Shown: positions 2,586-20,615, numbered from the stretch's first letter. The stretch: DNA of 64,000 bases from Terriglobia bacterium (GCA_965206645.1 CBDBKE010000004.1:2112001-2176000), one strand, 5' to 3'. The notes: generated from the sequence alone by a model not told the origin. Numbers and translations are program-made.

Positions 2586-2784
2586 GTTGTTAAACCTCCT
2601 GTTCGTGGTCACCATTTTCCACGGTTAAATGATCGGGTGTAACTTGGTGGGTACGCAGCTCCCGGAGCCGACCCGTACCGCATTCTAGCAGAACCTGACG
2701 CGATCCAAGAGGACCAGGACTAAGAGGGTGGGCTTCGGCGTGTACGCTCTGAAACGAAAGAATTCGCTTCGCATTTGACAGATA

Positions 2785-2812
2785 AGTCCCCACTAGTCGG
2801 TTAGCGTTTACT
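2785..2812 (+). repeat. 28-bp 11-6-11 Xer/dif-like site, copy A (spacer GTCGGT)
   Basis: AGTCCCCACTA GTCGGT TAGCGTTTACT; the motif recurs at 13208, 16372 and 16521. Confidence 0.6.
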
Positions 2813-2819
2813 TATCCTT

Positions 2820-2853
2820 AATCAGGCAGGAACCCCAATCAGGCAGGAACCCC
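2820..2853. repeat. Perfect 17-bp tandem duplication
   Basis: AATCAGGCAGGAACCCC x2. Confidence 0.95.
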
Positions 2854-3133
2854 CGAAAACTGCAGGTGTCAGGACCTGCCGCCTGCTCCTCCTCGAGGGA
2901 AGCGGCGGCAGCCACTGCCTGTCGCTCGCTCCTTCTGGTGCACAGAAAGTAAAAGGGCCGCTTCGTCGAGAAACGAGGCGCGCGGAAAGCAACCAACGTT
3001 CATCTTGGTGGACAAACTGGTGCACAAAACTGCGCCGAATGCGGGATTTCTTTCCCGAATAGCGGTAGGCTTTCCCGAACTACGTTGCTGAATCCAAACA
3101 GGAGAACAGGGGCGAGTATGGTTTATGCATGCA

Positions 3134-3178
3134 CTCCGGAACCAAAGGCCGCAGGTTCGAATCCTGCCGGGCGTACCA
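3134..3178 (+). pseudogene. 3' half of tRNA-Arg(CCG), att-site remnant
   Basis: CTCCGGA anticodon loop, then ACCAAAGGCCGCAGGTTCGAATCCTGCCGGGCGTACCA (T-arm, acceptor strand, CCA). No D-arm or 5' acceptor strand upstream. Confidence 0.8.
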
Positions 3179-3653
3179 TTTAACCCCCCTAAACGCCATT
3201 CACTTAGGCGTTAACCGCCGAGCTACTCAAGCTCCTGGGACACACGCGGCCAGACAAGATCGAGCTGGGAAAGGGATTGAGATCCTCGATGTCTTCTGGC
3301 TCCAGAGTCACAGCCGCGACGTCGGCGAGACGCGGGGGATCGCTAAACCTTCCGATAGAAAGTACTGCCCTCCCATTCCCCATGCCGCAGAAAGACATTC
3401 GTAGTGAGAAGCGCTGCACAGTATGGCTTAGTTCGGTTACAGTGTGTGCCGGATATGCGCCCCTGCTCAACCTCTCCATAGGCGAAAGCGGTTCTTGCCC
3501 ACTCGGGTAAGCCGGGGCTTGCGAGATTTGCGAATGTGTATGTCGAACTTCTTAGTTGATTCTTGGGTATTTTGCTATCGGGCTAGTCCTCCTGGCAGCG
3601 GTGGTGCTGGCCCAGTCGATTAGAGCTCCCAAGCCGAAACAACAAAACGAAGA

Positions 3654-5402
3654 GTGACGGTGACATCCTCAAGCAATAATAAAGTCGAACCACCGACCAG
3701 CCAACCGCCCGGTCTGTTCGAGCGCCTCGACAAGTTGAATGAGTTCGACCGGGAGCCCGTCACTCCGGACCGGCTCGAAAGCCGGCGGCATTTCGCGGCC
3801 GTTTTTGCGGGCGAACACGTCGCCGGTACGGAGTTCGTGATCGGCGCCCTCTTCGTCTCCTGGGGCGTTGGAACCCGGGATCTTGTTCTCGGTTTGTTGA
3901 TCGGCAATCTCCTGGCCGTTCTCGCCTGGACGTTCATCTGCGCCCCCATCGCCGTGCAGACACGGCTCACGCTCTATTGGTATTTGCGGCGCATCGCCGG
4001 GCCGGTGGTGACCACGATCTACAACGTAGTGAACGCCATTCTGTTCTGCGCGCTGGCGGGAGCCATGATCACGGTATCGGCCTCGGCCGTGCGCATCCCC
4101 TTCGGCATTCCGCCGCAAACCCAGTGGTACCCGACTGATCTTCGCTTCGTGTTGGTTGCCATGGCCGTCGGCGCGGTGGTGGTCACGATCGCGATCCTGG
4201 GTTTCAGACGGCTGGCCCAGTTTTCGACGATCTGCGTGCCCTGGATCTTCGTGGTATTTTTTGCCGGTGCCTTGGCCGTGCTGCCGCAATTGACGGCGGG
4301 CACCCCCGAGGTCGGTTCCATCGAAGGTCTCGATGACCTGCGGCGCCTTGCCGACGCGAGCATCTGGGTCGGCCGCGAGGACTCTGATTTCACCCTTTGG
4401 CATGTCGCCGCGTTTGCCTTGCTGGCCAACCTGGCGTTCCACGTGGGACTGTCAGATATGGCCCTGCTGCGCTACGCACCGCGAGCCAGCTACGGCTTGT
4501 TTTCCGCCTGCGGAATGTATATGGGCCACTTCTTGGTGTGGATGGCCTCGGGGGTGATGGGCGCCGGGACGGCGTTGATGCTCAAAACTCCTCTCAGCAG
4601 CCTGGACTCGGGGGAGATAGCGCATCAAGCGTTAGGTCTGGGCGGCGCACTGTGTGTGATCGTCTCCGGTTGGGCGACGTCGAACCCGACTCTGTATCGC
4701 GCCGGGCTTGCCTTGCAAGTGGTCACACCGGGGTGGCCCAGATGGCTGGTCACCTTGCTGGCCGGGATAGCGACGGTCACGCTTGCTTGTTTTCCCTACA
4801 TCTTTCGATACTTGCTCGAGTACGTTGGCACCTTCGCCATTCTCATGGCGCCGATCGCAGCGGTCGTATTCGTTGAGCATTGGGTTTTCCCGCGGATCGG
4901 CTTTCGCCGCTACTGGTTCGGCCAGTCGAAGAAGGTTGTCAACTGGGCGGCGCTGGCTGCCTGGGTAATCGCCGTCGTTTTCTGCTTTGCAGCTTGGAGA
5001 TGGGATCTGATGCATGTGGTGTTCATCGCCATCCCAGGCTGGGGGCTCGCTGCGATCTTGTACACGGCGTTTGCGGCCGTTGCTGGTGCGCGCGGGGAGA
5101 CCTTAGGAGAACTCCACCCATCTGAATCGGTAAGCGCTCCCATACCGGTGGCCGCCGCATCTCCCGCCCACGATCGAGCTGTCAAGTCAGCACGCTCCGC
5201 TTTGCAGATGGTGTCGGGAGTGATCGCCGCCTTGTCATTAGCGGCATGCTTTGCGCTCGCGCTCTGGGTTGGCCTGGCGGGTGAGGAGGAATATCAGCGG
5301 AACCTGGCAACTTTCAAAACATACCTGGCTGTGGCCAGCGTTGTACACCTGACTGCGGCTGCGATTTGGGTCTTGCGCTCCGAACAGTCGGGAGGAAATT
5401 AG
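3654..5402 (+). CDS. NCS1 / purine-cytosine permease family transporter
   Basis: 582 aa with many TM segments; GEHVAGTEFVIGALF and SNPTLYRAGLALQ motifs. Confidence 0.8.
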   Translation: MTVTSSSNNKVEPPTSQPPGLFERLDKLNEFDREPVTPDRLESRRHFAAVFAGEHVAGTEFVIGALFVSWGVGTRDLVLGLLIGNLLAVLAWTFICAPIAVQTRLTLYWYLRRIAGPVVTTIYNVVNAILFCALAGAMITVSASAVRIPFGIPPQTQWYPTDLRFVLVAMAVGAVVVTIAILGFRRLAQFSTICVPWIFVVFFAGALAVLPQLTAGTPEVGSIEGLDDLRRLADASIWVGREDSDFTLWHVAAFALLANLAFHVGLSDMALLRYAPRASYGLFSACGMYMGHFLVWMASGVMGAGTALMLKTPLSSLDSGEIAHQALGLGGALCVIVSGWATSNPTLYRAGLALQVVTPGWPRWLVTLLAGIATVTLACFPYIFRYLLEYVGTFAILMAPIAAVVFVEHWVFPRIGFRRYWFGQSKKVVNWAALAAWVIAVVFCFAAWRWDLMHVVFIAIPGWGLAAILYTAFAAVAGARGETLGELHPSESVSAPIPVAAASPAHDRAVKSARSALQMVSGVIAALSLAACFALALWVGLAGEEEYQRNLATFKTYLAVASVVHLTAAAIWVLRSEQSGGN

Positions 5403-5410
5403 CGAATGCC

Positions 5411-6205
5411 ATGGCCAACTCACGATTAACGAACCAGGTAGCGTGGATCAGCGGCGGCGCGTCGGGGATGGGTGAAGCTACGGCGCGACTGTTTGCCAGC
5501 GAGGGAGCGCGCGTGGCCATTGCTGACGTCAATCTGAAAGGCGCCCGGGAGGTGGCCGGCCGGATCGACTCTGGCGGTGAAAACCGGGCCGTTGCGATCG
5601 AGTGTGATGTGTCCCGTCAGGACGACGTGAGGCGTTCCATCGAGCAGACCGTTGACCTCTTCAACGGGCTGCACATCCTCGTCAATAACGCGGCGGTTGG
5701 CCAGTTCACGCCGCTCCACAAGTGTGAAGAAAACGAGTGGGACCGCGTCATGGCAGTGAACTTAAAGGCGGCCTACTTCTCCTTCAAGTTCTCCTATCCT
5801 CATTTGTGCAAGCTCGACCGCAGCTACGTCGTGAACGTCGCCTCCGTTAGCAGCTTTGTCGCGCAAGCCGGTACGCCTGTTTACACGGTTTCAAAGCACG
5901 CGCTGCTAGGGCTCACGCGGACCATCGCTCTCGACTACGCCGCGGACGGAATCCGCTGCAACTGCGTTTGCCCTGGTATTACCGATACCCCGGGGCTGCG
6001 CAAGCACCTGGAACAATACCCGGACGCCGACAAGAAGCTGGCCGAGCGACTCCGCCGCGTCCCCTCGGGAGAAATCATGACGCCCGATCAGATCGCCCGC
6101 GCGATCCTCTATTTCTCGTGTGAAGATTCAGCCGGCATTACCGCCACTTCGCTGGTCGCCGACGGCGGTTATTTGGCCGCCGCCGAGTGGGGCAGTGGAC
6201 AGTAA
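5411..6205 (+). CDS. SDR family NAD(P)-dependent oxidoreductase
   Basis: SGGASGMG glycine motif, NNAA, catalytic YTVSK, NCVCPG. Confidence 0.92.
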   Translation: MANSRLTNQVAWISGGASGMGEATARLFASEGARVAIADVNLKGAREVAGRIDSGGENRAVAIECDVSRQDDVRRSIEQTVDLFNGLHILVNNAAVGQFTPLHKCEENEWDRVMAVNLKAAYFSFKFSYPHLCKLDRSYVVNVASVSSFVAQAGTPVYTVSKHALLGLTRTIALDYAADGIRCNCVCPGITDTPGLRKHLEQYPDADKKLAERLRRVPSGEIMTPDQIARAILYFSCEDSAGITATSLVADGGYLAAAEWGSGQ

Positions 6206-6267
6206 CGGAGCACAAAAAAGAAGACTCTCCTTAATCTTGCACTTTTTAATCATTCTCAGGGTTGCCC

Positions 6268-7095
6268 ATGAAGCTTAAGCTCTCCTGCGCCGATTGCACA
6301 TTCCCACTTGTAACCCACAAGCAGTCATTGGATCTGGTCTCCATGCTTGGATTCGAGGGAATCGATATTGGGCTGTTTGAGGGCCGGTCGCACCTTCAGC
6401 CTTCCCGGGAGTTCCGGTCACTGGCACGCTCGGCACGTACACTCGCCAGGAAAGTAGAGGATCGCGGACTGAAAGTGGCCGACGTGTTCCTGCAAACGGA
6501 CGTAGCGCCTGAGCGTTACACACTCAATCACCCGCAGCCCCGCCGGCGCGCAAAGGCGCGGGATTGGTTCCTTAGAACGCTGGAGTATGCCAATCGCTGC
6601 AACTCAAAGCATGTCACCTTCATTGCCGGAGTGCCGTTTAAGAATGAGTCCAGATCTGCATCTTACGGGCGCAGTGTGGACGAACTTCCGTGGTATCTCG
6701 AGCAGGCGCAAGCTCACAGCATCGTCGCTGGTGTCGAACCTGGAATTGGCTCGATCGCGGCACGTCCCTTGCAGGCGGAGGAGTTGGTCCGAGATGTTCC
6801 TGGGCTGACCTTAACGCTCGACTACACCCACTTCACACGGGCCGGGCTACCGGACAAGCAGGTGGAGCCTCTGCTCGCCCATGCCAGTCACTTCCACGTG
6901 CGTGGCGCATGTAAAGGAAGACTCCAAGTGAACTTCAACGACAACGTCATCGACTACCGGCGCGTGCTTAGACGGATGAAGGAAATCGGTTATTCCGGTT
7001 GGCTCTGCATCGAGTATGTACACACCGAATGGGAGCGGTGCACCGAAAGCGATAATCTTTCAGAAACCATCCTCTTCCGCGACTTCATCAAGTAA
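6268..7095 (+). CDS. Sugar phosphate isomerase/epimerase (xylose-isomerase-like TIM barrel)
   Basis: VEP, LDYTH, HFHVR and GYSGWLCIE metal-site motifs. Confidence 0.85.
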   Translation: MKLKLSCADCTFPLVTHKQSLDLVSMLGFEGIDIGLFEGRSHLQPSREFRSLARSARTLARKVEDRGLKVADVFLQTDVAPERYTLNHPQPRRRAKARDWFLRTLEYANRCNSKHVTFIAGVPFKNESRSASYGRSVDELPWYLEQAQAHSIVAGVEPGIGSIAARPLQAEELVRDVPGLTLTLDYTHFTRAGLPDKQVEPLLAHASHFHVRGACKGRLQVNFNDNVIDYRRVLRRMKEIGYSGWLCIEYVHTEWERCTESDNLSETILFRDFIK

Positions 7096-7239
7096 GCGAT
7101 GGGAGAAATGTCATGAGACGATCATCCGCGAAAATCCGACGGGGTCTGGCCTAGACGTTTCTGAGCTAGCGACCGGGCCGCACCTAATAGTCTTCCGACT
7201 CGCCGCGCTCTCCGGTTTAAACGTTTCATCGAAAAGCCC

Positions 7240-8136
7240 TCAACTGGCGAGTCCAACGGATCGCAAATGCTCGAGATTGGCACGAGCGTCATCACGCGGA
7301 AGTGTGGCTCCTGCCGGATCGCAATCCTGCTCGACCGTGCCCCAGCCTGAGAAGCCGGCATGGATCAGCGCGGCCTTGAACGCTGCGAAATCAACCTCGC
7401 CCTTGCCCAGTATGCAGAACAGGCCCTGACCGCAGGCGTCATAAAAGCCGATCTGCTTGGCCACGACATGCGCCCGAACCGCGGGGTCGATGTCCTTGAA
7501 ATGCAGATATTCAACACGCGCGCTGTGGCGTGTGTAGAATGCGATCGGATCAAATCCGGCGTAAATACAGTGGCCGGTGTCGAGACAGATTTTCAGAAGC
7601 GAAGCGTCGATCGCATCGAGCATCCGCTCCAACTCGTCCGCGAATTCGACAAACCCGGCGGCGTGGGCGTGTAGCGAAACGGTTAAGCCGAATTCTTCCG
7701 CGCCGATCTTGGCGGCGCTGCGCAGACGATCTTGGAAAGAACTCAGCTCTGCGCCCTTCATGCGCCTCGCTTCAGCAGACCGCCCTGCAGTCGGCGCGCG
7801 CTCGGCTGCAATCGAATCGATCAGCACCATTCGTGGCGCTCCATGAGCGGCGAGCGACTTGCCGGTGCGGCGCACGGCATTCTGCACTTGGTCCCATGCC
7901 GCAGGATCGTGGAACGGCCGGAACACGACGCCGCCTATCAGCGCCAACCCGCGCGATTTCAGGGCATCACCCAATTGCGCAGGATTCTCGGGCATGAAGC
8001 CGATCGGCCCGAGTTCGGTACCCTCGTAGCCTGCCTGCAGGGTTTCATCGAGCACCAGCTCCCACGGCGGATTGCGCGGATCGTCAGCGAATTCCACGCC
8101 CCAGGAGCATGGAGCATTCCCTATGCGAAGTTTCAT
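7240..8136 (-). CDS. IolE-like (myo-inosose-2 dehydratase family) TIM-barrel protein
   Basis: IGNAPCSWGVEF, GYEGTELGP, HAHAAG, CLDTGH, LHFKD, LGKGEVDF, VEQD. Confidence 0.8.
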   Translation of the reverse strand: MKLRIGNAPCSWGVEFADDPRNPPWELVLDETLQAGYEGTELGPIGFMPENPAQLGDALKSRGLALIGGVVFRPFHDPAAWDQVQNAVRRTGKSLAAHGAPRMVLIDSIAAERAPTAGRSAEARRMKGAELSSFQDRLRSAAKIGAEEFGLTVSLHAHAAGFVEFADELERMLDAIDASLLKICLDTGHCIYAGFDPIAFYTRHSARVEYLHFKDIDPAVRAHVVAKQIGFYDACGQGLFCILGKGEVDFAAFKAALIHAGFSGWGTVEQDCDPAGATLPRDDARANLEHLRSVGLAS

Positions 8137-8237
8137 TTTGGTCTCTCGTTATGATCCAGTCCTCTAACGAACGTAGGCAGTGACGCGGGAGGGGTTAACC
8201 CACCTCTAACATAATCTTCAAGTACATGTAATCATTA

Positions 8238-8288
8238 GGACCTTCGACGATCAGCGCCGGTGTAGAGGCGCATCGCCTTGGTATGCAC
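8238..8288 (-). mobile_element. Second, more degenerate attC-like hairpin
   Basis: Minus strand GTGCATACC AAGGCGATGCGCC...GGCGCTGATCGTC just after the methyltransferase stop. An 8-bp inverted copy (GTGCATAC on +, 9031-9038) lies upstream of that gene. Confidence 0.35.
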
Positions 8289-8293
8289 TGGAG

Positions 8294-9013
8294 CTACTTC
8301 ACCTTTTGCCACACGAAGAACTTTTCGGTATCAGTCATTCCCAAGGGTGAGAAACCAGCATCAGCAAGCATTTCTGGAAACACTGTGTGTTTGTAGAATC
8401 CCAAGGTCAGCTTGTCTTCTGCAAGGAGTTTTCCGTTCCGCTTGAAGGAATAGTCCTTCTCGATGAAATAGTGGTCGGAGGTGCCGTTGCGACCCTCAAC
8501 TTTTTGGGAATAGACAATCCCATCGACCAAGTCGATGTCACGGTCTTCGTGGGGCTTCTGGACGCTTAACAACAGGAGCCCAGCGGCATCAAGATGCTCA
8601 GCAACGTTTTGCAATCCTTTGAAGTCCTTTTCACGGCTGAGCAGATGTGTTCCCAGCAGCAACTCTTTGTCCGACCGGATTATGACCCACGTACCGCCGC
8701 TCGATAAGGCAACATCAAATGTGCGGTCAAGGTTCATTTCGGCAACATCGCATTCTATGAGTGAAACTCGACTGGGTAGACGCTCCTTAGCAATCTCCAG
8801 CATCGAGGGACTGAAATCTACGCCGGTAAAATGGTAGGACGAATCGAGTTTACATAGCTCTCGTGCCAATAGCCCCGTCCCCACGCCAAGTTCAAGCATC
8901 CTTCTGCGTTCGCCGATCGTAGCTTGAACGACTCTGGCCAGCGATTCGTGATCATAGTAGCCGGCATCCATCAATAGATCGTAGTATCGGGCGATGCTTT
9001 TGTACTGATTCAT
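8294..9013 (-). CDS. Class I SAM-dependent methyltransferase
   Basis: LELGVGTG motif I, GVDFSPSML, FDVAL; lower GC. Confidence 0.9.
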   Translation of the reverse strand: MNQYKSIARYYDLLMDAGYYDHESLARVVQATIGERRRMLELGVGTGLLARELCKLDSSYHFTGVDFSPSMLEIAKERLPSRVSLIECDVAEMNLDRTFDVALSSGGTWVIIRSDKELLLGTHLLSREKDFKGLQNVAEHLDAAGLLLLSVQKPHEDRDIDLVDGIVYSQKVEGRNGTSDHYFIEKDYSFKRNGKLLAEDKLTLGFYKHTVFPEMLADAGFSPLGMTDTEKFFVWQKVK

Positions 9014-9140
9014 GTTGCTCGCTTCCTCCCGTGCATACGCCTGTAACTGCCTGCAACTTCAAAGACTTCCGTTCCATTCGGCGAAATGCGCCCGGAATCT
9101 TGTTCGGACCGGCTGATCCGCATAATTCCCCGCATCTCCC

Positions 9141-9269
9141 TCAGCTCTCCATTGAAGGATCCTGCCCCATCTGGTCAGGAGGGCTTTGAACCCCTCGTCT
9201 ACCACGGATCAACACGTGTGTATAGTCCCTCGTGATCTTAACGTCCTTGTGCCTCAGCAGCTCGTGCAG
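9141..9269 (-). pseudogene. intI: Integron integrase (IntI) C-terminal remnant
   Basis: Manual translation LHELLRHKDVKITRDYTHVLIRGRRGVQSPPDQMGQDPSMES*, compared with the IntI tail VQELLGHxDVxTTMIYTHVLNRGGxGVxSPLD. Confidence 0.8.
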
Positions 9270-9746
9270 TGGCCAAGGCACCGTCTATCCTCCTCCTCCC
9301 CACTTCGCGAGTCAAGGGGCCCGCGCCGTTCTCCGCTCCTTGGCTGTCGCCGAGATACCGCCTTGTTCTTGCACTGCCCGTTTTCTCTCCAAAACCTTCA
9401 CGCAGGTTCGCCCGTATCTGTGAGGCGGAAGTGGGCTACGAAGTCACGAAGAGCTAATGATGGGGAAGCCCTCGGCGTGGCAATTCCTCCCAGAGCCCCG
9501 ATGGTTTCCGGTTTGTCGGCGGCCCAGACAAAGGAGCAATCACCGTTCCCCTACCAGCAGAGGTAAAGGGGCGTGACGCAGTTCTCCGGCCCGATAGTAT
9601 TCCTCTCTCCCAGGGGTCTGGCGAGCAGGGTGGGAAAGTACCCCTGATGGGACTCAAGGAGGGGCTTACGACTGTTCCGTGTGGACGTTCGTGTGGACAG
9701 AGGGAGTGTTAGGCCAACTGTCGAATTGCTAAGCAAAAGAAAGGAA

Positions 9747-9800
9747 TTGTGGACCTGGCCGGGTTCGAACCGGCGAATCGGCGACCTCCTGACTGCCAGT
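9747..9800 (-). pseudogene. 3' half of tRNA-Ala(GGC) with an internal 8-bp duplication, att-site remnant
   Basis: Minus strand ACTGGCAGTCAGGAGGTCGCC[GATTCGCC]GGTTCGAACCCGGCCAGGTCCACAA: GGC anticodon and U70 identity base. Confidence 0.7.
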
Positions 9801-10408
9801 TCACTTGGCTCATGAATACGGACTGCTACCGAGTGTGCTGGAGGGCCTGTCTGTTGCGGGTTTCCTGCGACACCGCAAACTTCGTGACGCTCCGTAGCAG
9901 TCCGTAATCTGTCGTATTCCAGCGCCGCTCAGAGCCCCCAGAGAGAAGAACTGTGCTGGAAGGGCTCAGTTGGAGGCCAATGGGCGTATTTACTCACGAG
10001 TCCCGGAGGGCCAAAAAACTAATTCCGGATATAACCGAACAAGACACCGGAGCAGGCAAAGCGAGCCATGATGTCACCCAAAGGAGGCCATGGCGATCTG
10101 AACTGGATCGACAGACCGGCTTGCAAATGTTTGGGGGAGAGGGAAAGTCAAATCGGAAACTCTCGCTTCGGGAGGCGCTACGGGATGGGGAAACTCAACT
10201 TCACTGACATCAGCCCTGAGGTGGCGCGGCGCATCGTGGTGTTCCTCAATTGCGCGAAGAACGCCGGAGACATCGCGGGATTCGAGCCGGCAGCTAGGAA
10301 TTGTTCAGCATTCTATAGGGAAGTACAAGAGGGGAGCTTACCTCAGTGCCGAGGATATTCAAATCGATTTGAACGGGGCGTACAAATCGAGTCTCTAGAT
10401 CAAGCCGA

Positions 10409-12098
10409 TTATTCTTTCAAGTGATGCCGGGCGTCTACCGGGCGAACGCATGCATTGGCGAGGAGGGCCACAACGAGTAAGCCGGCCATCAGAAACATCG
10501 TCGAGTTATAGAGTGTGCTCGAAGGGTCCAAGGTTCCCGGTGCAGCAATTTCCATCAATTTCGCGATGGTCACGGTTTTTTGAGCCACCAGCTCATCGAG
10601 TTATTCCAGAGGCGCGCCGGATTTTGCCGCAAAGGCGGCCGGATCCACCGAGCGCGCGAGTTTTTCCAGGGCGCGGTCGAGAGCCGTTTCCCGCAGGGAC
10701 GTGATGGCCAGCGGGCCCAACACCCCGGCGGTGCTCCAGGCGGTAAGCAGTCGCCCGTGAATCCCTCCCACGAACCGAGCGCCGAACAAGTCGGCTAGAT
10801 AGGCGGGAACCGTGGCAAATCCTCCTCCGTACATCGTAAAGATGAGCAGAGTGGATCCGTAGAAAAAGACCAGCCAGACGGCGGACGGGGAGACGGCGGC
10901 CTGCCGGGCCGTATAAGGGATGGATAGATAAAGAAGCGTTCCCAGCACAAAGAAGATGGTGTAGGTGGTCTTGCGTCCGAGATAGTCCGATACGCTGGCC
11001 CAGAAAAACCGCCCCCCCATGTTGAAGACGCTGATCATCAGAACACTAGGTTGCGGCAAAAGTGCCGTCCACGATTCCCGGCGAGGTGGTGCCGAAGATT
11101 TCCGTCATCATCGTCTTGGCCACGCCCAAGACCCCGATGCCCGCCGTTACGTTGAAGCAGAGGACAATCCAGAGCAGGTAGAATTGGGGTGTTTTCAAAG
11201 CTTGGTCGATCCCCACGTCATTCCGGCTGATCATTTTCCGCGCTGCATCCCGTTCCTCGGGAGGCCTCCATCCTTCCGGTTTCCATCCCGGCGCAGGAAT
11301 ACGATAGGAAAAAGAGGCCAGCAACATGACAGCGAGATAAATCGCACCCAGGGCCAGAAAGGTTGCCGCTACACCCGTCGTTCCCGTACCAACAAGGCAG
11401 ACTCCCTCCGGGCCGGGCATCAACATTTGGGAGACATCATTCGCTCCGACGACCACCACTTCCCGTAATTCGCCGGCCAGGGAAGCAAACCGCTTTCCTC
11501 CTTCCGTCACCAGGGAAACCTCCTCCACGCGCCCCAGAAAATCCGGACTGCGGTAGAAGAGTCGGATCAGAAATTCCTTTAGCGGGGCCCCGATCATTGC
11601 GCCCCCGCCGAATCCCATGATGGCCATGCCGGCCGCCATCCCGCGCCGGTCGGGAAACCAGCGAATGAGCGTGCTGACGGGCGAAACGTAGCCCAGCCCC
11701 AGGCCGCATCCTCCCAGGACTCCGTAGCCGAGATAAAGGAGCCAGAGCTGATGAAGCTGGATGCCTGCGCCTCCGAGCATGAATCCCCCGCCCCAGCAGA
11801 TTGCCGCCACCGTTCCCACCAAGCGGGGTCCCACCTTCTCCAGCCATTTCCCCGCAAAAGCGGCTGCGAGACCCAGAAATACGATCGCCACCGTGAAGAC
11901 CCAGACCACCTGCTTGAGCGTCCAGTTCCCCGCGGCGCTTACGACCACCCCCTGGACTTTCACCAGCGCAGGGTTGAAAATGCTCCAGGCATAGACGGAA
12001 CCGATGCAGAGATGGATTGCCACCGAAGCAGGCGGAACCTTCCAACGATTGAAGCCGGATGGTGCAATAATCCGTTCTTTCGAAAAAATATCCGCCAT
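10409..12098 (-). pseudogene. OFA (oxalate/formate antiporter) family MFS transporter pseudogene
   Basis: A +1 insertion (ACC TAG T GTT, probably from ACC TAT GTT) near 11046 and an in-frame TAA at 10601-10603. Reading continues LDELVAQKTVTIAKL...VRPVDARHHLKE* to 10409. Confidence 0.85.
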
Positions 12099-12228
12099 GA
12101 TCCCAGATTATGAAACCGGAAATCTGCCCTTCAAATTTCACGAAGCAGGCGATTATACACGGGACACCTGCGCCTCCGGCTGCCGTGCTTTCTTGAGTCG
12201 GTTCTTTTGAATTCTGCTGCGAAAGGGT

Positions 12229-12247
12229 CTAACAGGGTGCTGAAAAA
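12229..12247 (+). mobile_element. Possible isolated IS5-like terminal inverted repeat
   Basis: CTAA target-like tetramer followed by CAGGGTGCTGAAAAA. No transposase or partner end seen. Confidence 0.35.
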
Positions 12248-12471
12248 CGCAGCAAAAATAAAAGTGCTTCGTTCTGGAGAAGCTGTGCGAGTCGTTTCCA
12301 GGGGCGTTCATGGGCCTTTGGGGCCTTGCTCGGATCCCCGATTCGCCTGGGGCCCATGTCCACCTCGCCGGGGAACGGCAATGCCGGATAGCCGTCCGGC
12401 CTTGAGAATCGGAGTATCATTGCCCCCAAGGGGAGAATCGGCCGCCCTGCCGTTTGCCGTAGGAGTCCTAG

Positions 12472-13176
12472 ATGACGAAAGCCAAAACCGGCTGGCTGCT
12501 GCTGGGAATCTTGTGTCTGGCCTCCTTTGCCGTGGCCCAAGCCGCGGCCTGGGCGAAGTACATAAAGGCAGGCACAGAAGCCTACCAGCGGGGCCAGTAC
12601 TCCGGGGCTGAGAAACAATTCGTGGCTGCCCTCAAGGAGGCTGAAAAGTTTAGAGAGCAGGACCCTCGGCTAGCCACCAGCCTCAACAACCTAGCGGAGC
12701 TTTACCGCGCCCAGGGTAAGTCCGCTGAGGCCGAGCCGCTCTACCGGCGGGCGCTGGCGATCGTGGAGAAAGCCCTGGGTCCGGAGCATCCGAATATGGC
12801 CACCAGCCTCAACAACCTGGCGTTGCTCTACGACGCCCGGGGGAAGTACGCCGAGGCCGAGCGGTTTTACAAACGCTCGCTGGCAATCCGAGAGAAGGCC
12901 CTGGGACCGCAACATCCTCACGTTGCCCAAAGCCTCAACAACCTAGCGTCGCTCTACCAAGCCCAGGCCAAGTACGCCGAGGCCGTGCCGCTCTACCAGT
13001 GGGCGCTGGTGGTTTGGGAGAAAGCCCTGGGGCCAGAGCATCCCAGCGTGGTCACGGCCCTAGAGAATTATGCTGAGCTTCTACGGAAGACGAACCGGAA
13101 GGCCGAGGCCGCCAAACTGGAGGCCCGCGCCCAGGCCATTCGCGCCAAGCACGCTGGAAAGAACCCACCGAAGTGA
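12472..13176 (+). CDS. Exported tetratricopeptide repeat protein
   Basis: Signal peptide; three ATSLNNLAxLY...ALGPEHP-type repeats. Confidence 0.9.
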   Translation: MTKAKTGWLLLGILCLASFAVAQAAAWAKYIKAGTEAYQRGQYSGAEKQFVAALKEAEKFREQDPRLATSLNNLAELYRAQGKSAEAEPLYRRALAIVEKALGPEHPNMATSLNNLALLYDARGKYAEAERFYKRSLAIREKALGPQHPHVAQSLNNLASLYQAQAKYAEAVPLYQWALVVWEKALGPEHPSVVTALENYAELLRKTNRKAEAAKLEARAQAIRAKHAGKNPPK

Positions 13177-13207
13177 CCTACCTCGTGGTCACCAGCAATG
13201 CCGAACA

Positions 13208-13235
13208 GGTCCCCACAAACGGGCTAGTGTTTACC
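13208..13235 (+). repeat. 28-bp 11-6-11 Xer/dif-like site, copy B (spacer ACGGGC)
   Basis: GGTCCCCACAA ACGGGC TAGTGTTTACC, preceded by CAGCAATGCC as in copy E. Confidence 0.65.
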
Positions 13236-13904
13236 TATGTTCCAGCCTGGATGGTCCACGTGTGTGTGCCTCGGGGCTGGAAAATCTTCGGTGTTGAGCG
13301 CCCTGGAGGACTGTAGCGATCCCCCGAGCGCAAGATTAGAGGGGGGTATCTAAAGTGGGCTAAGTACACGGCGCGTAGCCTCCAAGGACAGGGACGACGT
13401 TAGCGTTGCTGCCTATGGTGGTGCGAAGCGCCTGGCCCGACGATCTCGTTGGCGCCGATCGCCTCTCTGGCGCCGGTCAACGAATATGGGTTGCTGTTCC
13501 CGGCGACGGTCTCGGCGCCGGCGCCGCTGGAAGTTGCGCTCGTCCAGCAAGTTCCTTTCCCTTTCGCTCAGGTTAGGAATCCGTCGTGGAAGTAGTGTCG
13601 TTGTACGCCGCGAAACGGTCAAGCAGAGTCATGGACTTGGTTACATCCAAGACAATTCTTGAGCTCAGTGCTCGAAGCAAGCGAATGCTGAATCTGCTGC
13701 TTCAAGACCGATCCTTTCAGAGATTGCCGGAAGCGGGCGAACGACCGCAGTGAAGGAGTAAGGAGCCCGTAGATGGGCACATCTGCCGAGGCGTGAGCGC
13801 GTAGTTCGCCTGTAATATTGGGAACGCCCCCAATCGCCCAGAATCGCCCGCTAGGGCGCCTGACAGGGCTGGACTACCCCGCCGGACTGACAACCGGAAT
13901 TGCA

Positions 13905-14056
13905 GGCGATCGGATCGAGTTACGTGGCTTTGGGGTCTCCAACGTAAAGCCGCGCAAACAGGCATCGACCGCAATCCCCGCACCGGCAACGTCGTCAACA
14001 TCCCTCCAGGCAAGTCTGTTCGTTTCAAGCCGGGCAAGGAGCTGCAGAGTCTCTAG
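13905..14056 (+). pseudogene. HU/IHF family DNA-binding protein remnant
   Basis: GDRIELRGFGVSNVKPRK, a 1-nt frameshift, then GIDRNPRTGNVVNIPPGKSVRFKPGKELQSL*. N-terminus missing. Confidence 0.85.
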
Positions 14057-14160
14057 TCCTGTTCTTGCGCACCGTCCCCCACCGGCCCCAAAGAATTGAA
14101 CACCCCAGGCACGGCATGAGCGATCATCCCCTGACTTTATCGTGGGCCTTGAGAACCGGC

Positions 14161-14382
14161 TCACTTGACCAGTTGCATCGTCTCTGACGCGGCCGGCACC
14201 TTAACTTGCAAACCTGCGATTAGCTCCAGAGTGGCTTTGTTGACTGTTTCAGCTTCCTGTAGTCGTTGCTCCATGCGGTTGAACTCGACTCGAAGCTTGC
14301 GATTGCTTTCGTAAGTGGCCATTGTGAAGAACGTCAGAATCAGGATCGCTAGCGCAAAGATGACTCGCTCTGAAGTGCGCAT
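14161..14382 (-). CDS. Small membrane-anchored coiled-coil hypothetical protein
   Basis: AAAGGAGG RBS, N-terminal TM helix, heptad-like C-terminus. Confidence 0.65.
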   Translation of the reverse strand: MRTSERVIFALAILILTFFTMATYESNRKLRVEFNRMEQRLQEAETVNKATLELIAGLQVKVPAASETMQLVK

Positions 14383-14745
14383 CTTGGGCGTGACCTCCTT
14401 TCCGCTTTGGTTGTATTGGTGAGCAGGTCATGCGAAACTGCCGCCGTGGGACTTGTCACGTGTCAACCGAAATGCCCGATTGGAGGCTAGAAGCATACGC
14501 CGTCCCCCCTCTTGTTGCAAGCTCAGCACCATGGCCTCTCCTGGGTGGTATCGCGGACTAACGGTTGGGCTTATTAGGAAGGAAGCGGGAGTCCCACCTG
14601 AAAGCACCCTAGGTAACCCCCCTGGTGTGAGGTGCTGCCCAGGTCCGGACCCCTTTGTGCTGCGCCAAGCGTGAAACGCTGCTATTATGGCAGGTAGCCC
14701 CACCTCGAAAATGTGGGACCATGCCCGATAAGCCCAAATACGAGA

Positions 14746-15070
14746 GAGCAGCTAAAGGGAAGCGAACGCGCCCAGTGGCCTTCATCCTGGTCGTCGGACG
14801 GCCAAACCCTGGCCTTTCTTGAAGTCCATCCCAACACGGGCGCTGACATCTCGGTTCTTCCGTTGCAGGGCGAGCGCAAGCCGCGCCCATTCCTCCAAAC
14901 CCAATTTAATGAAGTCCTGGCGGTGTTCTCCCCGGACGGTCAGTGGCTAACGTATCTCTCCGATGAGTCCGGACGGTTTGAAGTCTACGTACGGCCGTTT
15001 CCCGGCCCCGGCGGCAAGTGGCAGATCTCCACCCAAGGCGGCCATCGGCCGTTCTGGGCGAAGAACGGTT
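14746..15070 (+). pseudogene. Internal fragment of the PD40/TolB-like beta-propeller of a Ser/Thr kinase
   Basis: WSSDGQTLAF...LPLQGERKPRPFLQTQF...FSPDGQWL...PGPGGKWQIS; close nucleotide similarity to about 34464-34790. Confidence 0.85.
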
Positions 15071-15109
15071 TCCTAGTACCAAGACCGGTTTCACGGCTCC
15101 AGGCTGCGA

Positions 15110-15135
15110 TGTAAACTCTCACGACGTGTGGTACA
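15110..15135 (-). repeat. Degenerate Xer/dif-like site, copy C
   Basis: On +: TGTAAACTCTC ACGAC GTGTGGTAC, versus the reverse complement of copy A (AGTAAACGCTA ACCGAC TAGTGGGGACT), with small deletions. Confidence 0.4.
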
Positions 15136-15211
15136 AAAAGTCGGTCTGGTCACCAGAGTTTTCCGGAATGGAAAGGTTTACTTCCAAACAGCGGATTGAG
15201 GGAGGCTACCC

Positions 15212-15697
15212 ATGCCGTGGAAAGTTTCATTCGTTGAGGGAATCGACGGTGTAATTCGTTGGGCGGTTCGGGCTTTGGCTCTCCTGATGACCTTTGTGGT
15301 GATCATGGGTGTCGTGGAAGTTGTGTGGGAACTATACGACCGCCTCCGTCAGCCACCCATTATGAAGCTGGGGATTACGGAACTCGAGGCTACGTTCGGC
15401 ACGTTCATGGCGGTTCTGGTGGCAATCGCAATCCTCGCAAATATCACCTTACGTCTGCGAGAAGGCGTCGTCCGCGCCGAGGTGGTGATGGGCACGGCGC
15501 TCATTGCCACGGCACGAACAGTTATCATTCTCGACCTGAGAGAGTATTCGGCGCCGCAAGTGTGGGGAGTTGCGGTGCTGGTTCTGGCGACGGCTATCGG
15601 ATACTGGCTGGTGCGCGGAGGTAGTCCGAAGAGTGCCCTCCTCTCTCGGGAAAGCGCGGACGTTCCGAGCGGTCGAAGTCCGGCGGAGAAAAATTAG
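15212..15697 (+). CDS. Phosphate-starvation-inducible PsiE family membrane protein
   Basis: Four TM segments; FGTFMAVLVAI and TALIATARTVIILD motifs; GGAGG RBS. Confidence 0.8.
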   Translation: MPWKVSFVEGIDGVIRWAVRALALLMTFVVIMGVVEVVWELYDRLRQPPIMKLGITELEATFGTFMAVLVAIAILANITLRLREGVVRAEVVMGTALIATARTVIILDLREYSAPQVWGVAVLVLATAIGYWLVRGGSPKSALLSRESADVPSGRSPAEKN

Positions 15698-16078
15698 TCA
15701 CATCTTCTCTCATGCTCTTTGGAAATGAATGTCATGTAGGGCGCCGTGCTCAGGGCGGGAGGAGATCAAGAAAAACGTCGTACCTGTAGGAGAGCAGGTT
15801 ATAAAGCTCGATACAAAATGACCCGCAGCCACTCTATGAGACACACGAAGTTGAGCGAGTTGGATTGTTGCGTGCCGACTACGACTCGCTTATCGCCGAA
15901 ATCGAGCAACTCACCAAAACGACAATCAGTGCCACTTCGGGCAAGTTGAGATGGTAAAGCGAGCCATCTTGCCTGGGCCAGAGAACAAGCGGCTGCGGGA
16001 GGTGCTGGGCAATTATTGGAAGCCTGCCTTCGGGCAGATGCGGCTGAAGACTTGGCCGAAGAGGTGGACGGCTCACTG

Positions 16079-16236
16079 CTAGATGCAGCTCGCGCCACGC
16101 TGGACCGGCTCTCGCTCCAGAGCCGCGTGATAGATCTCCTCGACCTTTTGCCAACGTTCGGGCGTCATCCCGCTACACCCCTGCCACCACCCAACTTCTC
16201 CAGGATGCGGTATCGCCCGAGCGGCCGGCCGACCAT
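16079..16236 (-). pseudogene. Two abutting N-terminal Ser/Thr kinase fragments
   Basis: MVGRPLGRYRILEKLGGGRGVAG* (from 16236) and MTPERWQKVEEIYHAALEREPVQRGASCI* (16168-16079). The second matches the start of the kinase at 32155. Confidence 0.8.
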
Positions 16237-16371
16237 GAGCAAGAAGCCTCCCTCTTGGGGGCCAAGCTACGCCCCGGCCACAGGCAAGTCAAGGCGAATG
16301 GCCTACTCCGGGAAGGGGTTGCTGACGGCAGTATCTCGCTCTAAAGCGGGTTCCCTCAATCTTCTTTGATA

Positions 16372-16399
16372 GCTTCCCACTAGTCGGTTCGTGTTTACC
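16372..16399 (+). repeat. 28-bp 11-6-11 Xer/dif-like site, copy D (spacer GTCGGT)
   Basis: GCTTCCCACTA GTCGGT TCGTGTTTACC. Confidence 0.6.
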
Positions 16400-16520
16400 C
16401 ATGCTGCCACACCGCCACTTGGATGTATAACGCGCTTATCGGAAACTGACCCACTACCCTGGCGGGCCTAGAGGGTCACTTGTCCGGTAAGCCGACTATG
16501 CGGCCAAGTGGAACTTGGTC

Positions 16521-16548
16521 GGTAAACGCTAGCCCGTTTGTGGGGACC
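16521..16548 (-). repeat. 28-bp 11-6-11 Xer/dif-like site, copy E (spacer ACGGGC)
   Basis: Reverse complement GGTCCCCACAA ACGGGC TAGCGTTTACC; 27/28 identical to copy B. Confidence 0.65.
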
Positions 16549-16709
16549 TGGCATTGCTGTTGACAAGGGGGTATCGCGTGCCGCTTGCACTGTGGCAGGC
16601 GCAAGACCGCCGGCGCAACTAGCCGAGTCGCCGCGTTGACTTGGCTGAGGGTGCAGACTAAGGAGCCAGCCCACCGCTGGCTCTTTTTCATTCTCATTTG
16701 GCTAAGTAC

Positions 16710-16931
16710 CTACGCCGTTGCCAGCGCCTTCCGCCGTTCGCGGTGGTATTCCGACAACTTGGCGTTAGCCGCCGCGATCGTTTTGCCCTCATCGGCAACC
16801 CTGGCCAAGTCATTCCCAGGAACCGCTACGTAAAGCTCGTCTTCCCCGAGGTCTGTGTAGACGCGGTTACCGATACAGCCCGTGCTCGTGTCGACCTCAA
16901 TGGGGAATCCCAGGCAAGGTTGGATTTCCAT
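16710..16931 (-). CDS. Hypothetical protein (possibly a fragment)
   Basis: 73-aa ORF with plausible composition; no recognisable motif. Confidence 0.3.
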   Translation of the reverse strand: MEIQPCLGFPIEVDTSTGCIGNRVYTDLGEDELYVAVPGNDLARVADEGKTIAAANAKLSEYHRERRKALATA

Positions 16932-16995
16932 CGGAAATCCGCAGCCCTGGGTTTTTCTTTCAAGAAGAATTTACCTGGCGGAATAAGGGAAAAGA

Positions 16996-18204
16996 TCAGG
17001 TCGCTTCCCAGTCGATTTCCTTGACCTCGTTCTGGGCGGGGGGAATCGCCGGCACGGGTTGCCTGCGAAACAGCAAGACCGCCACCGGGAATCCCACGAA
17101 ACCGGTCAGCCCCAGAACCCAAAGGGTCGAGTAAAGCCCGAATCTTTCGGCGAACATTCCCGCCGGGGTAATGCCGATTGCCGCCATCCCCCAGCTCACG
17201 CCCATCACGAAGCTCGAAATCGTCCCCACTCGCCGGGGAAAGCTGCGCTGGCTGATGGCGATCAGAATGGGCACTCCGGTGAAGATGGAATACCCCGCCA
17301 GTCCGAAGCACGCGATGCCCGCAATGGAAGTCCCCAAAAGGAGATATCCGAGCAAGAGCGGGATGGGAATCAGGAAGGATGCAAACAGGACTCCCTTTTC
17401 GCCGATGCGCTCGGCCCAGGTACCGCCCGTCAAGCCGCCGATTCCTCCCGCAATCCCGAACACAAAGAACGTCAGGCCCACGGTAGGGAGCGGGGTGCCG
17501 AGTTCGGTCAGGTAGAGCGGCACAAAGGTCTGAAAGCCCAGGATTACAAATGCGCGAAGCATGGAGAGAATTCCCAGGCCAAACAGTAATCCGTAGCCCG
17601 CTGGCAGGGTTCCCGCCCCCCGAGATTTTCCCTCCTGAGGCACGGGCCTTTCGTTGATGTTGCGGCGAATCAGGAAGGCAACCAGACATCCGAAAACGAC
17701 GGCATAAACCGTCGCGGACAATCCTCCCCAGTCGACCAGCGCCGCGGCCACCAGGGCTCCCACGGCCACGCCCATCACCCCGCCGGTGACGAAGATGGAC
17801 ATTCCGACACTATGCCGGGGCCCGCTTTCGAGCGCCGCCAGGGATGCGCCGTAGGGATGAAATGCGGCAATGCTCAGACCGCCGGCGATGACCAGGAAAA
17901 TCAGACTGGTGTAGGAAGGCATGATCCCGATACAACTCAGTGTGACTGCGGCGAGCATGGGAGCGAAGGCCACCAGGCGCACACTGCGCCAGCGGTCGAA
18001 CAACACCCCGAAAAGTGCCTGCGAGAATGTGACCGAAAGCGAAAAGGCCGAAACCAGGATGGCCGCCTCGGTAAGCGTAAAACCCACGGCCCGCTGCAAC
18101 ACCGGCACCAGCACGGGAATAAACCCGGCATAGAAGTCCACCGTAAAATGGCCAACCGTAAGCAGGAGGAGCTTGGATAATCTGAACTCAGCCTTTGAAA
18201 TCAT
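16996..18204 (-). CDS. MFS transporter, Fsr (fosmidomycin resistance)-like family
   Basis: GHFTVDFY, AAFHP, MSIFVTGGVMG, GGTWAERIG; about 12 TM segments. Start codon uncertain. Confidence 0.85.
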   Translation of the reverse strand: MISKAEFRLSKLLLLTVGHFTVDFYAGFIPVLVPVLQRAVGFTLTEAAILVSAFSLSVTFSQALFGVLFDRWRSVRLVAFAPMLAAVTLSCIGIMPSYTSLIFLVIAGGLSIAAFHPYGASLAALESGPRHSVGMSIFVTGGVMGVAVGALVAAALVDWGGLSATVYAVVFGCLVAFLIRRNINERPVPQEGKSRGAGTLPAGYGLLFGLGILSMLRAFVILGFQTFVPLYLTELGTPLPTVGLTFFVFGIAGGIGGLTGGTWAERIGEKGVLFASFLIPIPLLLGYLLLGTSIAGIACFGLAGYSIFTGVPILIAISQRSFPRRVGTISSFVMGVSWGMAAIGITPAGMFAERFGLYSTLWVLGLTGFVGFPVAVLLFRRQPVPAIPPAQNEVKEIDWEAT

Positions 18205-18430
18205 AAAGTTATGTCCCGCGATTGAATCCATTCGGACATGCCCTGCGGTGCTGGTGGATCATAGAACCGGAACCACTCCCGTTTGACGATGCCACCCTCA
18301 AGCGGAGCTGGACGCTGCTGGTACAGGCCAGCGAACATGTGCTTTCCCATCTCCGATTCCTTCTGGTGGAGTTCCGTCTTGCTATAGCGGGACTCCCAGA
18401 GCGCCTCACCGTCCCAGAACTCTCCCTTGC
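18201..18430 (-). pseudogene. Phage terminase large subunit internal fragment
   Basis: GEALWESRY...FAGLYQQRPAPLEGGIVKREWFRFY...WIQSRD matches the terminase YQQxP...GGxxKREW...QSWD pattern. Confidence 0.75.
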
Positions 18431-18799: not shown

Positions 18800-18846
18800 T
18801 GGAGCCGACGGGGGGACTTGAACCCCCAACCCCCTGATTACGAATC
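18800..18846 (-). pseudogene. 3' half of tRNA-Thr(CGT), att-site remnant
   Basis: Minus strand GATTCGTAATCAGGGGGTTGGGGGTTCAAGTCCCCCCGTCGGCTCCA; no 5' half. Confidence 0.8.
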
Positions 18847-19287
18847 CGGGGGCAGTATGTCCACCACGTTCACGGGCGTCTATTCTCTAGCAACTTACAA
18901 GCGACTTCATTCCATTTCGTCCAGGGCGTTTGGCTGTCGTCTATCCTGTTGGCTGTCAACCATATCTCGACGGGTAACCCACCCAGGGAACGCCCGCATG
19001 CGAGGCTTCCGTCCCGCGGGGCAGGCGACGGTCCCGATGGTACCAGCCCGAGCCAGAATCTTGTAATTCGGAATGACGTTTATGAATATAAATGACGCCC
19101 GCCACACCCGCTGACGTGGCTGGACCGCACCGGTGCTGACAATCGGCACTGTAGGGAAGCGGAGAGAGAAAGTGGGAGTCCCACTTGACACCCCCTGGGA
19201 TCACCCCCCAGGGCCCGTGCTGTCACGGACGGTACCAGGCGGTGGGCTGGTTCTTCGAGCGAGCGTCGCCCGCTCGGCCCTTGCCTC

Positions 19288-20538: not shown

Positions 20539-20615
20539 TGGTAGGCCCGAGCGGGCTCGAACCGCTGACCTCTACCGTGTCAAGGTAGCGCTCTAACCAA
20601 CTGAGCTACGGGCCT
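20539..20615 (-). tRNA. tRNA-Val(GAC)
   Basis: AGGCCCGTAGCTCAGTTGGTTAGAGCGCTACCTTGACACGGTAGAGGTCAGCGGTTCGAGCCCGCTCGGGCCTACCA; full cloverleaf with CCA. Confidence 0.97.

Follow-up and report, generated by a model that had tools for sequence, protein, structure and literature searches.

Background

The dif sites of XerC/XerD and the pdif sites of Acinetobacter plasmid modules are 28 bp long with an 11-6-11 layout, and inverted pdif copies delimit the plasmid modules. A 28-bp motif of the same layout recurs in a 64,000-nucleotide stretch of a Terriglobia bacterium genome (GCA_965206645.1, CBDBKE010000004.1:2112001-2176000; hereafter the window), and the nature of this 28-mer is the subject of the present study. 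In E. coli, bacterial interspersed mosaic elements (BIMEs) and repetitive extragenic palindromes (REPs) form intergenic mosaics, in which two motif classes alternate in orientation and are joined by long or short linkers. As for mobile elements, mobile insertion cassettes (MICs), MITEs (miniature transposable elements with inverted repeats) and solo inverted repeats are treated as non-autonomous derivatives of insertion sequences (ISs) in the relevant passage of the ISfinder/ISsaga authors (PMC3129680). According to the ISfinder-derived family entries, the IS1 family has GGnnnTG ends and makes 8-9-bp direct repeats (PMC10425158 Table 8; PMC6807381). For the IS6 family, GGnnnTG ends and 8-bp repeats are noted likewise (PMC6807381), so that the assignment of an element to one of these families by its ends alone is not unique.

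The repeat described in the window is real but was over-interpreted in the preliminary description, and we are fairly confident that it belongs to mobile elements of a fairly ordinary sort and does not constitute a new system of dif-like gene shuffling. Within a dispersed repeat family of mosaic build, the 28-mer is probably a conserved subterminal block, which in its L-type form lies inside the ends of non-autonomous, IS1-like elements that carry cargo genes, elements of the MIC kind. The L-type ends would be long (~105-130 bp), imperfect terminal inverted repeats of transposable elements with passenger genes; such elements would end in GGTAGTGGGTCAGTTTCCGG, duplicate 8 bp of the target, possess no transposase gene, and be moved in trans by a DDE transposase of the IS1 family. 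Each element would have a spacer of class 2 at one end and of class 1 at the other, and because the two ends belong to opposite classes, the genes between them appear bracketed by inverted copies.

Distribution and structure of the repeat family

The window is located on contig C4 of a 4.4-Mb, four-contig assembly (G000). Genome scans were performed with a 26-nt core allowing up to 3 mismatches, with the reversed core as control, and covered 41 genomes. We detected 64 copies in G000, on all four contigs, while the reversed control gave 0; three other genomes of the genus contained 44, 46 and 10 copies, the last of these having a completeness of only 62%. From the 37 genomes outside the genus we obtained 0-4 copies, with controls of 0-3. 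Among the genomes searched, the 28-mer family is limited to one genus.

In the preliminary description, the 28-mers were read as Xer/dif-like (pdif-like) sites, or as sites of a dedicated tyrosine recombinase, at whose spacers crossover would shuffle, invert or excise gene modules, and the repeat was confined to a chromosomal island. The confinement is not borne out by 64 copies in a 4.4-Mb genome, and their number and spread over four contigs also disagree with Xer sites of the dif type, dif being single per replicon and close to the replication terminus. The two spacer classes, by contrast, hold genome-wide, with GTCGGT (class 1) in 26/64 and ACGGGC (class 2) in 38/64 copies.

The repeated unit is longer than the 28 nt first described, since conserved sequence that differs between the classes adjoins it on either side. 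The outer flank, ahead of GTCCCCAC, is conserved within each class over 25-43 nt, and past GTTTAC each class takes one of several inner flanks. In the L form, coverage by other genomic copies stops sharply 55-71 nt beyond the 26-mer, at ...CCGGAAACTGACCCACTAC, and a sharp inner boundary of the repeat is likewise found at ...ACTGACCCACTAC; the inner flank of the S form differs from that of the L form. L-type ends thus measure ~105-130 bp and finish in the tip GGTAGTGGGTCAGTTTCCGG, with the 26-mer core 55-71 nt inside.

Adjacent copies follow two patterns, in which 6/7 pairs no more than 300 bp apart are in (+,-) orientation, while the 17 pairs at 300-5000 bp comprise 11 (-,+), one (+,-) and five of the same orientation. 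All 11 (-,+) pairs consist of one class 1 and one class 2 copy, and the genes bracketed by them are unrelated to one another. The bracketing of genes by inverted copies in 11 of 17 adjacent pairs speaks for Xer-type sites, but inverted flanking sites are explained equally well by the terminal inverted repeats of transposons.

A mosaic of two classes in alternating orientation, with long or short linker motifs, is also what would be seen if the repeats were REP/BIME-like palindromes, or REP doublets forming hairpins (REPINs), mobilised as single-stranded DNA hairpins by a REP-associated tyrosine transposase (RAYT; Y1 HUH type), the IS1-like tips being secondary. This explanation gains from the confinement of the family to one genus among the genomes searched, from the termination of the units in GTAG/CTAC, and from two Y1_Tnp-family genes in the genome (35 and 27 bits). 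These IS200-like or RAYT-like genes (C4:709931-710560, 209 aa; C4:115722-116309, 195 aa) lie between housekeeping genes with no 28-mer nearby, and the lack of a flanking motif at either of them tells against the explanation. Furthermore, single repeat units fold no better than shuffled sequences (z = -0.26, -0.37, +0.47 and -0.88), folding above the shuffled level being found only for the inverted pair of the window (copies C and D below; region 16325-16600, a long imperfect hairpin, z = -2.58), and a search of Rfam at the repeat sites gave no matching family. Y1 transposases of the IS200/IS605 and RAYT families are not known to make 8-bp target duplications, which are present here. Mobilisation as hairpins is accordingly most improbable in our judgement.

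Element ends, target duplications and empty sites

A search of G000 for the tip, allowing up to 3 mismatches to GGTAGTGGGTCAGTTTCCGG, led to the identification of 49 tips, including 12 inward-facing pairs within 10 kb, which were taken as tip-bounded elements. The 8-nt flanks of eight of these 12 elements are identical at 6/8 positions or more (at least 7/8 in seven of the eight), compared with 1 of 132 non-cognate flank pairings that reaches 6/8 identity.

Two L-type elements, lying in otherwise syntenic DNA, are polymorphic between sister genomes, in which the flanking DNA is 86-97% identical, and are precisely missing from the empty sites. The 2.9-kb element at C2:192568-195447 has a class 2 end and a class 1 end and, between them, a gene for a predicted 549-aa protein whose N-terminus looks signal-peptide-like by eye; the sister genome G003 lacks the element, and the flanks join there with a single copy of the 8-mer (GCGCTCGG / GCGCGCGG in G000 versus GCGCTTGG in G003). 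The 3.1-kb element at C3:758129-761272 carries a gene for an 875-aa Ser/Thr kinase-TPR protein and is absent from both G001 and G003; its 8-mer is duplicated in G000 (CAACCCAA / CAACCCGA) and single at the empty sites. As at least these two elements, carrying a kinase and a signal-peptide-like protein, differ between sister genomes, the family has recently moved host-type genes. The passengers are diverse, including Pkinase, Abhydrolase_1 and proteins without a family match.

The modules end at the tip, which lies 55-71 nt outside the 26-mer, rather than in the spacer. A tip boundary together with an 8-bp duplication is the signature of DDE transposition rather than of crossover by Xer or another tyrosine recombinase. 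The crossover in the 6-bp spacer assumed in the preliminary description is thus contradicted by module boundaries in related genomes, which fall outside it, an outcome that this description itself had named as refuting.

IS1-like transposases in the genus

An intact open reading frame (ORF) of 347 aa in G000 (C4:1596665-1597708) matches DDE_Tnp_IS1 with 35.3 bits (cut-off 24.1), the match being partial and restricted to one 42-residue stretch, and relatives of this IS1-like ORF are present in 4/4 genomes of the genus. An IS with such a relative, at C4:1910685-1912760, has inverted repeats identical at 17/17 positions (GGTAGTGGGCTACTTTG) and an 8-bp duplication (GCCCGCCT). IS1-like transposase genes in G000 are accompanied by tips GGTAGTGGG.., near-identical to the L-type tip, and at C2:14856-19501 the tips equal the L-type tip over 16 nt, with the IS1-like transposase gene split by another insertion. 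The elements that bear the 28-mer have no transposase gene of their own, and the transposases found inside them belong to nested insertions. From these tips and duplications, we infer that the L-type elements were moved in trans by an IS1-family DDE transposase.

Two other candidates for the cognate enzyme were rejected. A Mutator/IS256-type transposase inside a tip-bounded element sits in a nested 1440-bp IS, which has unrelated inverted repeats of its own and is found in 8 copies. Transposases inside two other modules, presumably IS1380-like to judge from their N-terminal sequence, also belong to nested insertions, and one of these segments is absent from the same place in G001.

Repeat copies in the window

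The window was scanned on both strands with the consensus RGTCCCCACWA-N6-TAGYGTTTACY, allowing up to 3 mismatches, and 100 shuffles served as control. The scan returned exactly the four clear copies first described, at 2785(+), 13208(+), 16372(+, 3 mismatches) and 16521(-), where 0 are expected, since 100/100 shuffled windows gave zero matches. The features concerned, together with the neighbouring segments referred to below, are as follows.

2785..2812, + strand: copy A, class 1 (spacer GTCGGT), S-type, 0 mismatches; repeated unit ~2747-2833
13208..13235, + strand: copy B, class 2 (spacer ACGGGC), S-type; repeated unit ~13181-13256
15084..15158, - strand: solo end fragment of a 1.25-kb IS3-like insertion sequence, previously taken as a degenerate copy at 15110
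16372..16458, + strand: L-type class 1 end in right-end orientation, running from copy C through a linker to the IS1-like tip
16459..16466, no strand: 8-nt spacer CTGGCGGG between the abutted tips, of the length of the target duplication
16467..16548, - strand: L-type class 2 end in left-end orientation, running from a variant tip through a linker to copy D
16724..18215, - strand: passenger-like segment with an MFS transporter gene (16996-18231; MFS_1, 5.1e-31)

The two degenerate copies proposed near 15110 and 1635 did not survive, as their best ungapped matches miss 9/20 and 11/20 fixed positions, respectively, which is chance level (819/1500 random 101-nt chunks of the genome score 9 mismatches or fewer). 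Without the copy at 15110, the strict alternation of orientation also fails, the actual order being +, +, +, -. The idea that the copies delimit modules stands insofar as they mark the ends of mobile gene modules and occur at synteny breaks, while the Xer-type mechanism attached to it does not.

Copy C occupies 16372-16399 (3 mismatches) and is followed by a 40-nt linker and a tip that ends ...GGAAACTGACCCACTACC at 16458; on the minus strand this tip has 1 mismatch to GGTAGTGGGTCAGTTTCCGG, and the 26-mer of copy C lies 60 nt from the terminus. The variant tip CCTAGAGGGTCACTTGTCCGG at 16467-16487 (16467(+), 1 mismatch) leads to copy D at 16521-16548, whose outer flank extends to ~16590. Copies C and D therefore represent two L-type ends back to back with their tips 8 nt apart, C belonging to one element as its right end and D to a second element as its left end. 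The centre CTGGCGGG, or a close variant, is also seen where tips are paired back to back elsewhere in the genome, and because both the arrangement and the centre recur at other loci, the back-to-back pair has itself been propagated as a unit.

Copies A and B have the 28-mer and the outer flank in common with the L-type ends but possess no tip, and count as S-type variants or solo remnants. Coverage by other genomic copies extends from about -39 to +47 around the 26-mer of copy A, and the surrounding region (window 2673-2841) is missing from the otherwise syntenic G001, which has a different 1.1-kb gene farther on. Copy B is located 32 nt past the stop codon of a TPR-repeat gene (12472-13176; TPR_12, 3.8e-61). 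A weak tip-like match at window 10402 was too weak to be claimed.

The fragment at 15084-15158 derives from a 1.25-kb IS3-like element, the ends of which start TGACC.. and in whose ORF an rve/IS3-like motif was recognised by eye. Genome-wide, the subterminal 36-mer of this element is present 77 times. A derivation of the S-type units from this abundant element was considered and dropped, since their similarity to it is at chance level.

Several findings weigh against the interpretation as IS1-like cargo elements. The tip is recognisable at the expected distance of 55-71 nt in only 16/64 copies, which makes the classification into L- and S-type rough, and 4/12 tip-bounded pairs have no duplication. 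Copies A and B, for which no IS1-like tip was found within the window, and S-type copies in general are without such a tip, and none of 13 (-,+) modules, S-type ones included, is flanked by a direct repeat of 8/8 identity in the 100 nt next to the motifs. The 8-nt centre recurs at many back-to-back loci, of which independent insertions give no account. Moreover, the four genomes yielded no intact autonomous element whose tips are exactly those of the L-type, the best match being broken by another insertion sequence, and the 28-mer is absent (up to 6 mismatches) from the transposase-bearing IS1-like elements. Finally, elements that lack the 28-mer at one or both ends still have target duplications, and the function of the 28-mer is consequently not explained by transposition.

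Boundary evidence for the S-type copies consists of one case, in which the break between G000 and G001 falls exactly between the halves of an S pair. Two synteny searches at back-to-back pairs revealed breaks 100-320 nt from the pairs, and some further regions searched were too rearranged or contained the module in both genomes. The possibility that back-to-back pairs are MITEs ending in the outer flanks was rejected, as the printed flanks display no duplication by eye.

Tests of site-specific recombination at the 28-mer

The case for Xer-type or other tyrosine recombinases rests first on the form of the 28-mer. Its 11-6-11 dyad has arms symmetric at 7/11 positions in copies A and B, as read directly from the sequence, and copy B matches the arms of E. 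coli dif at 14/22 positions (8 mismatches), both in agreement with the preliminary description. Across the family, however, the copies have 8-10/22 mismatches to the E. coli dif arms while three other loci have 6, and the inner bases are CACWA/TAGYG, the canonical CATAA/TTATG being missing. The best dif-like candidate in G000 is located at C4:431886(-), with the sequence GTTGCGTATAA-GTCTAT-TTGTTGTAACT, 6/22 mismatches to the E. coli dif arms and the bases ..TATAA, ~63 kb from where the cumulative GC skew of contig C4 peaks.

The spacers offer another argument for such recombination, as the class 2 spacer matches class 1 at 4/6 positions in reverse complement and 2/6 in forward orientation, and the cores could be read as direct repeats. 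We considered this flipping of the core between the spacer classes as an indication of crossover polarity, and dropped it as evidence since it rests on 4/6 versus 2/6 matches, with a probability by chance of ~0.04 by our own estimate. A crossover between class 1 and class 2 copies would generate arm-swapped sites, and their near-absence counts against recombination by Xer: a search of the four genomes gave no GTCCCCA..TGGGGAC hybrid, and GTAAAC..GTTTAC sites, which would favour it, occur once each in G000 and G001. The arm-swapped site, GTAAACACTAACGGGCTAGCGTTTAC, is identical at G000:C4:2196792-2196817 and G001:C10:177994-178019 and has S-type inner flanks on both sides in G000. Such a product would be expected of a rare deletion between the two copies of an inverted pair.

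Candidate enzymes exist, since the genome contains 33 Phage_integrase-family matches, two of them high-scoring (152-168 bits); the two best Xer-like proteins are encoded in the regions of C4:609221 and C2:61092. Only 4/33 of these matches lie within 5 kb of a copy, though, and 58/64 copies have no Phage_integrase-family gene within that distance. For the module with the MFS gene, homology begins outside the spacer of copy D, at a distance of 175 nt from this copy. Contigs assembled from 4 public runs contain joints such as 2815->16414 and 13242->16419, with 12-13 other letters between the two sides; these are as expected from cross-matching of other repeat copies and are silent on excision or inversion. 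Weighing these observations together with the tip boundaries 55-71 nt outside the site and their 8-bp duplications, we consider it very unlikely that the 28-mers are Xer/dif-like or dedicated tyrosine-recombinase sites.

The two mechanisms could also be combined, with the 28-mers acting as crossover sites, for host Xer or an unlinked dedicated enzyme, at which cassettes are swapped or excised inside IS1-like ends. This would amount to an integron-like cassette platform riding on a transposon, in which the spacer classes would be attL-/attR-type hybrids and the single GTAAAC..GTTTAC site an emptied platform, and it would explain the very different passengers between the same conserved 40-nt outer flanks. 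We give such a platform scarcely any credence.

Possible role of the 28-mer

Under the preferred interpretation, in which the 28-mer is a subterminal block of IS1-like cargo elements, its own role is a separate question. The two ends of one element, compared in two elements, are identical at 16-18/20 positions of the tip and 19-20/26 positions of the 26-mer, while the linker and the outer flank are ~55% identical. As the tip and the 26-mer are kept while the linker and flank diverge, the 28-mer probably contains a functional dyad site bound by a protein. It appears to be dispensable for (past) transposition, and we favour, with low confidence, a putative accessory or regulatory binding site at the element ends.

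The main alternative is a host operator role, in which the 28-mer would primarily be a binding site for a host regulatory or architectural protein (operator or nucleoid-protein site), carried by or co-opted from the mobile ends and conserved through regulation of the adjacent passenger genes, not through mobility. The dyad symmetry, the retention of the arms between otherwise diverged ends and the seeming dispensability for transposition suit this role as well. In addition, a conserved promoter-like segment (..CGCGTTGACTTGSCTG.., by eye) often follows class 2 ends and leads into Ser/Thr kinase genes, and in one case a copy is located 36 nt upstream of where a gene starts. On the other hand, position and orientation relative to gene starts are inconsistent, the module genes facing either way; ~100-130 nt of flanking sequence are co-conserved, which is typical of a mobile repeat and not of an operator; and no candidate regulator was identified. 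A host site of this kind is thus unlikely.

The promoter-like segment ..CGCGTTGACTTGSCTG.. (by eye) was observed after class 2 ends at window 16600-16680 and at locus L025 (6330-6430), followed by Shine-Dalgarno-like AAGGAG/GGGAGG. The same segment at other loci leads into Ser/Thr kinase genes starting MVGRTLGHYRILEKL, while at window 16600-16680 only remnants follow; a reversed 5' fragment of a kinase gene is found at 16098-16296.

Neighbouring features

G001 and G002 contain the passenger-like segment 16724-18215 in other contexts, at 99% identity compared with 93-97% for syntenic flanks. Ahead of the segment in G001 lies an end with a tip but without the 28-mer.

A tyrosine integrase gene (19715-20464; Phage_integrase, 6.4e-23; 339-aa open frame) directly adjoins tRNA-Val, with tRNA-Thr 0.9 kb on. 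An integrase beside a tRNA is what usually marks a tRNA-targeted island, and has nothing to do with the repeat family. We also noticed the 3' portion of a tRNA, comprising T-arm, acceptor stem and CCA, at window 3146-3178(+), not called by ARAGORN and not identical to either tRNA-Thr (18800-18877) or tRNA-Val (20539-20615), at which contigs of many organisms pile up. This fragment may be the relic of an attachment site.

Two further segments of the window deserve mention. About 220 bp at 1823-2041 are absent from the syntenic place in G001, and a fragment there resembles the TPR-repeat gene 12472-13176. Another dispersed repeat of ~100 bp, at 9925-10034, has many copies of 86-95% identity in all three sister genomes, ~8 of them listed in G003, and is situated at the end of the synteny with G001 (9923).

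G000 is very rich in insertion sequences. Near-identical copies of the 1.25-kb IS3-like element (e.g., C4:1384541-1385790) number ~40 or more, while a 1.44-kb Mutator/IS256-type element (e.g., C4:428761-430200) is present in 8 copies and a 1.66-kb element (e.g., C4:1247196-1248858) in ~20 copies of ~100% identity.

The finding accounts for what would otherwise resemble a new recombination system. Non-autonomous, gene-carrying transposons and their fragments litter the genomes of the genus and mark many synteny breaks. Annotation and pan-genome work can profit from this, as can the study of how paralogous families expand in the group. The conserved dyad 28-mer inside the ends is the remaining point of mild interest.

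Comparison with known systems

The repeat shares with the pdif/dif sites a 28-bp, 11-6-11 imperfect palindrome with inverted copies around modules. It differs from them in being chromosomal, with 64 copies and other inner arm bases, in having module boundaries outside the site with 8-bp duplications, and in the near-absence of arm-swapped hybrids.

Like the BIMEs and REPs of E. coli, it forms a two-class alternating mosaic between genes and is genus-confined among the genomes searched. Unlike them, the single units form no stable hairpin, target duplications are present, and no motif-flanked RAYT gene was found here.

The L-type tip GGTAGTG fits the GGnnnTG ends of the IS1 family, and the 8-bp duplication fits the 8-9 bp stated in the family entries cited above; IS1-like DDE transposases are also present in the genus. 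The elements bearing the 28-mer depart from this family in having no transposase gene inside.

The closest resemblance is to MICs, with which these elements have in common IS-type terminal inverted repeats and target duplication, the carriage of passenger genes without a transposase gene of their own, and the occurrence in the same genome of a related, transposase-bearing IS and of solo ends. Compared with MICs, the ends here are unusually long (~105-130 bp) and contain a second conserved block, the 28-mer, that is missing from the transposase-bearing relatives, and pairs of ends recur back to back around a fixed 8-nt centre.

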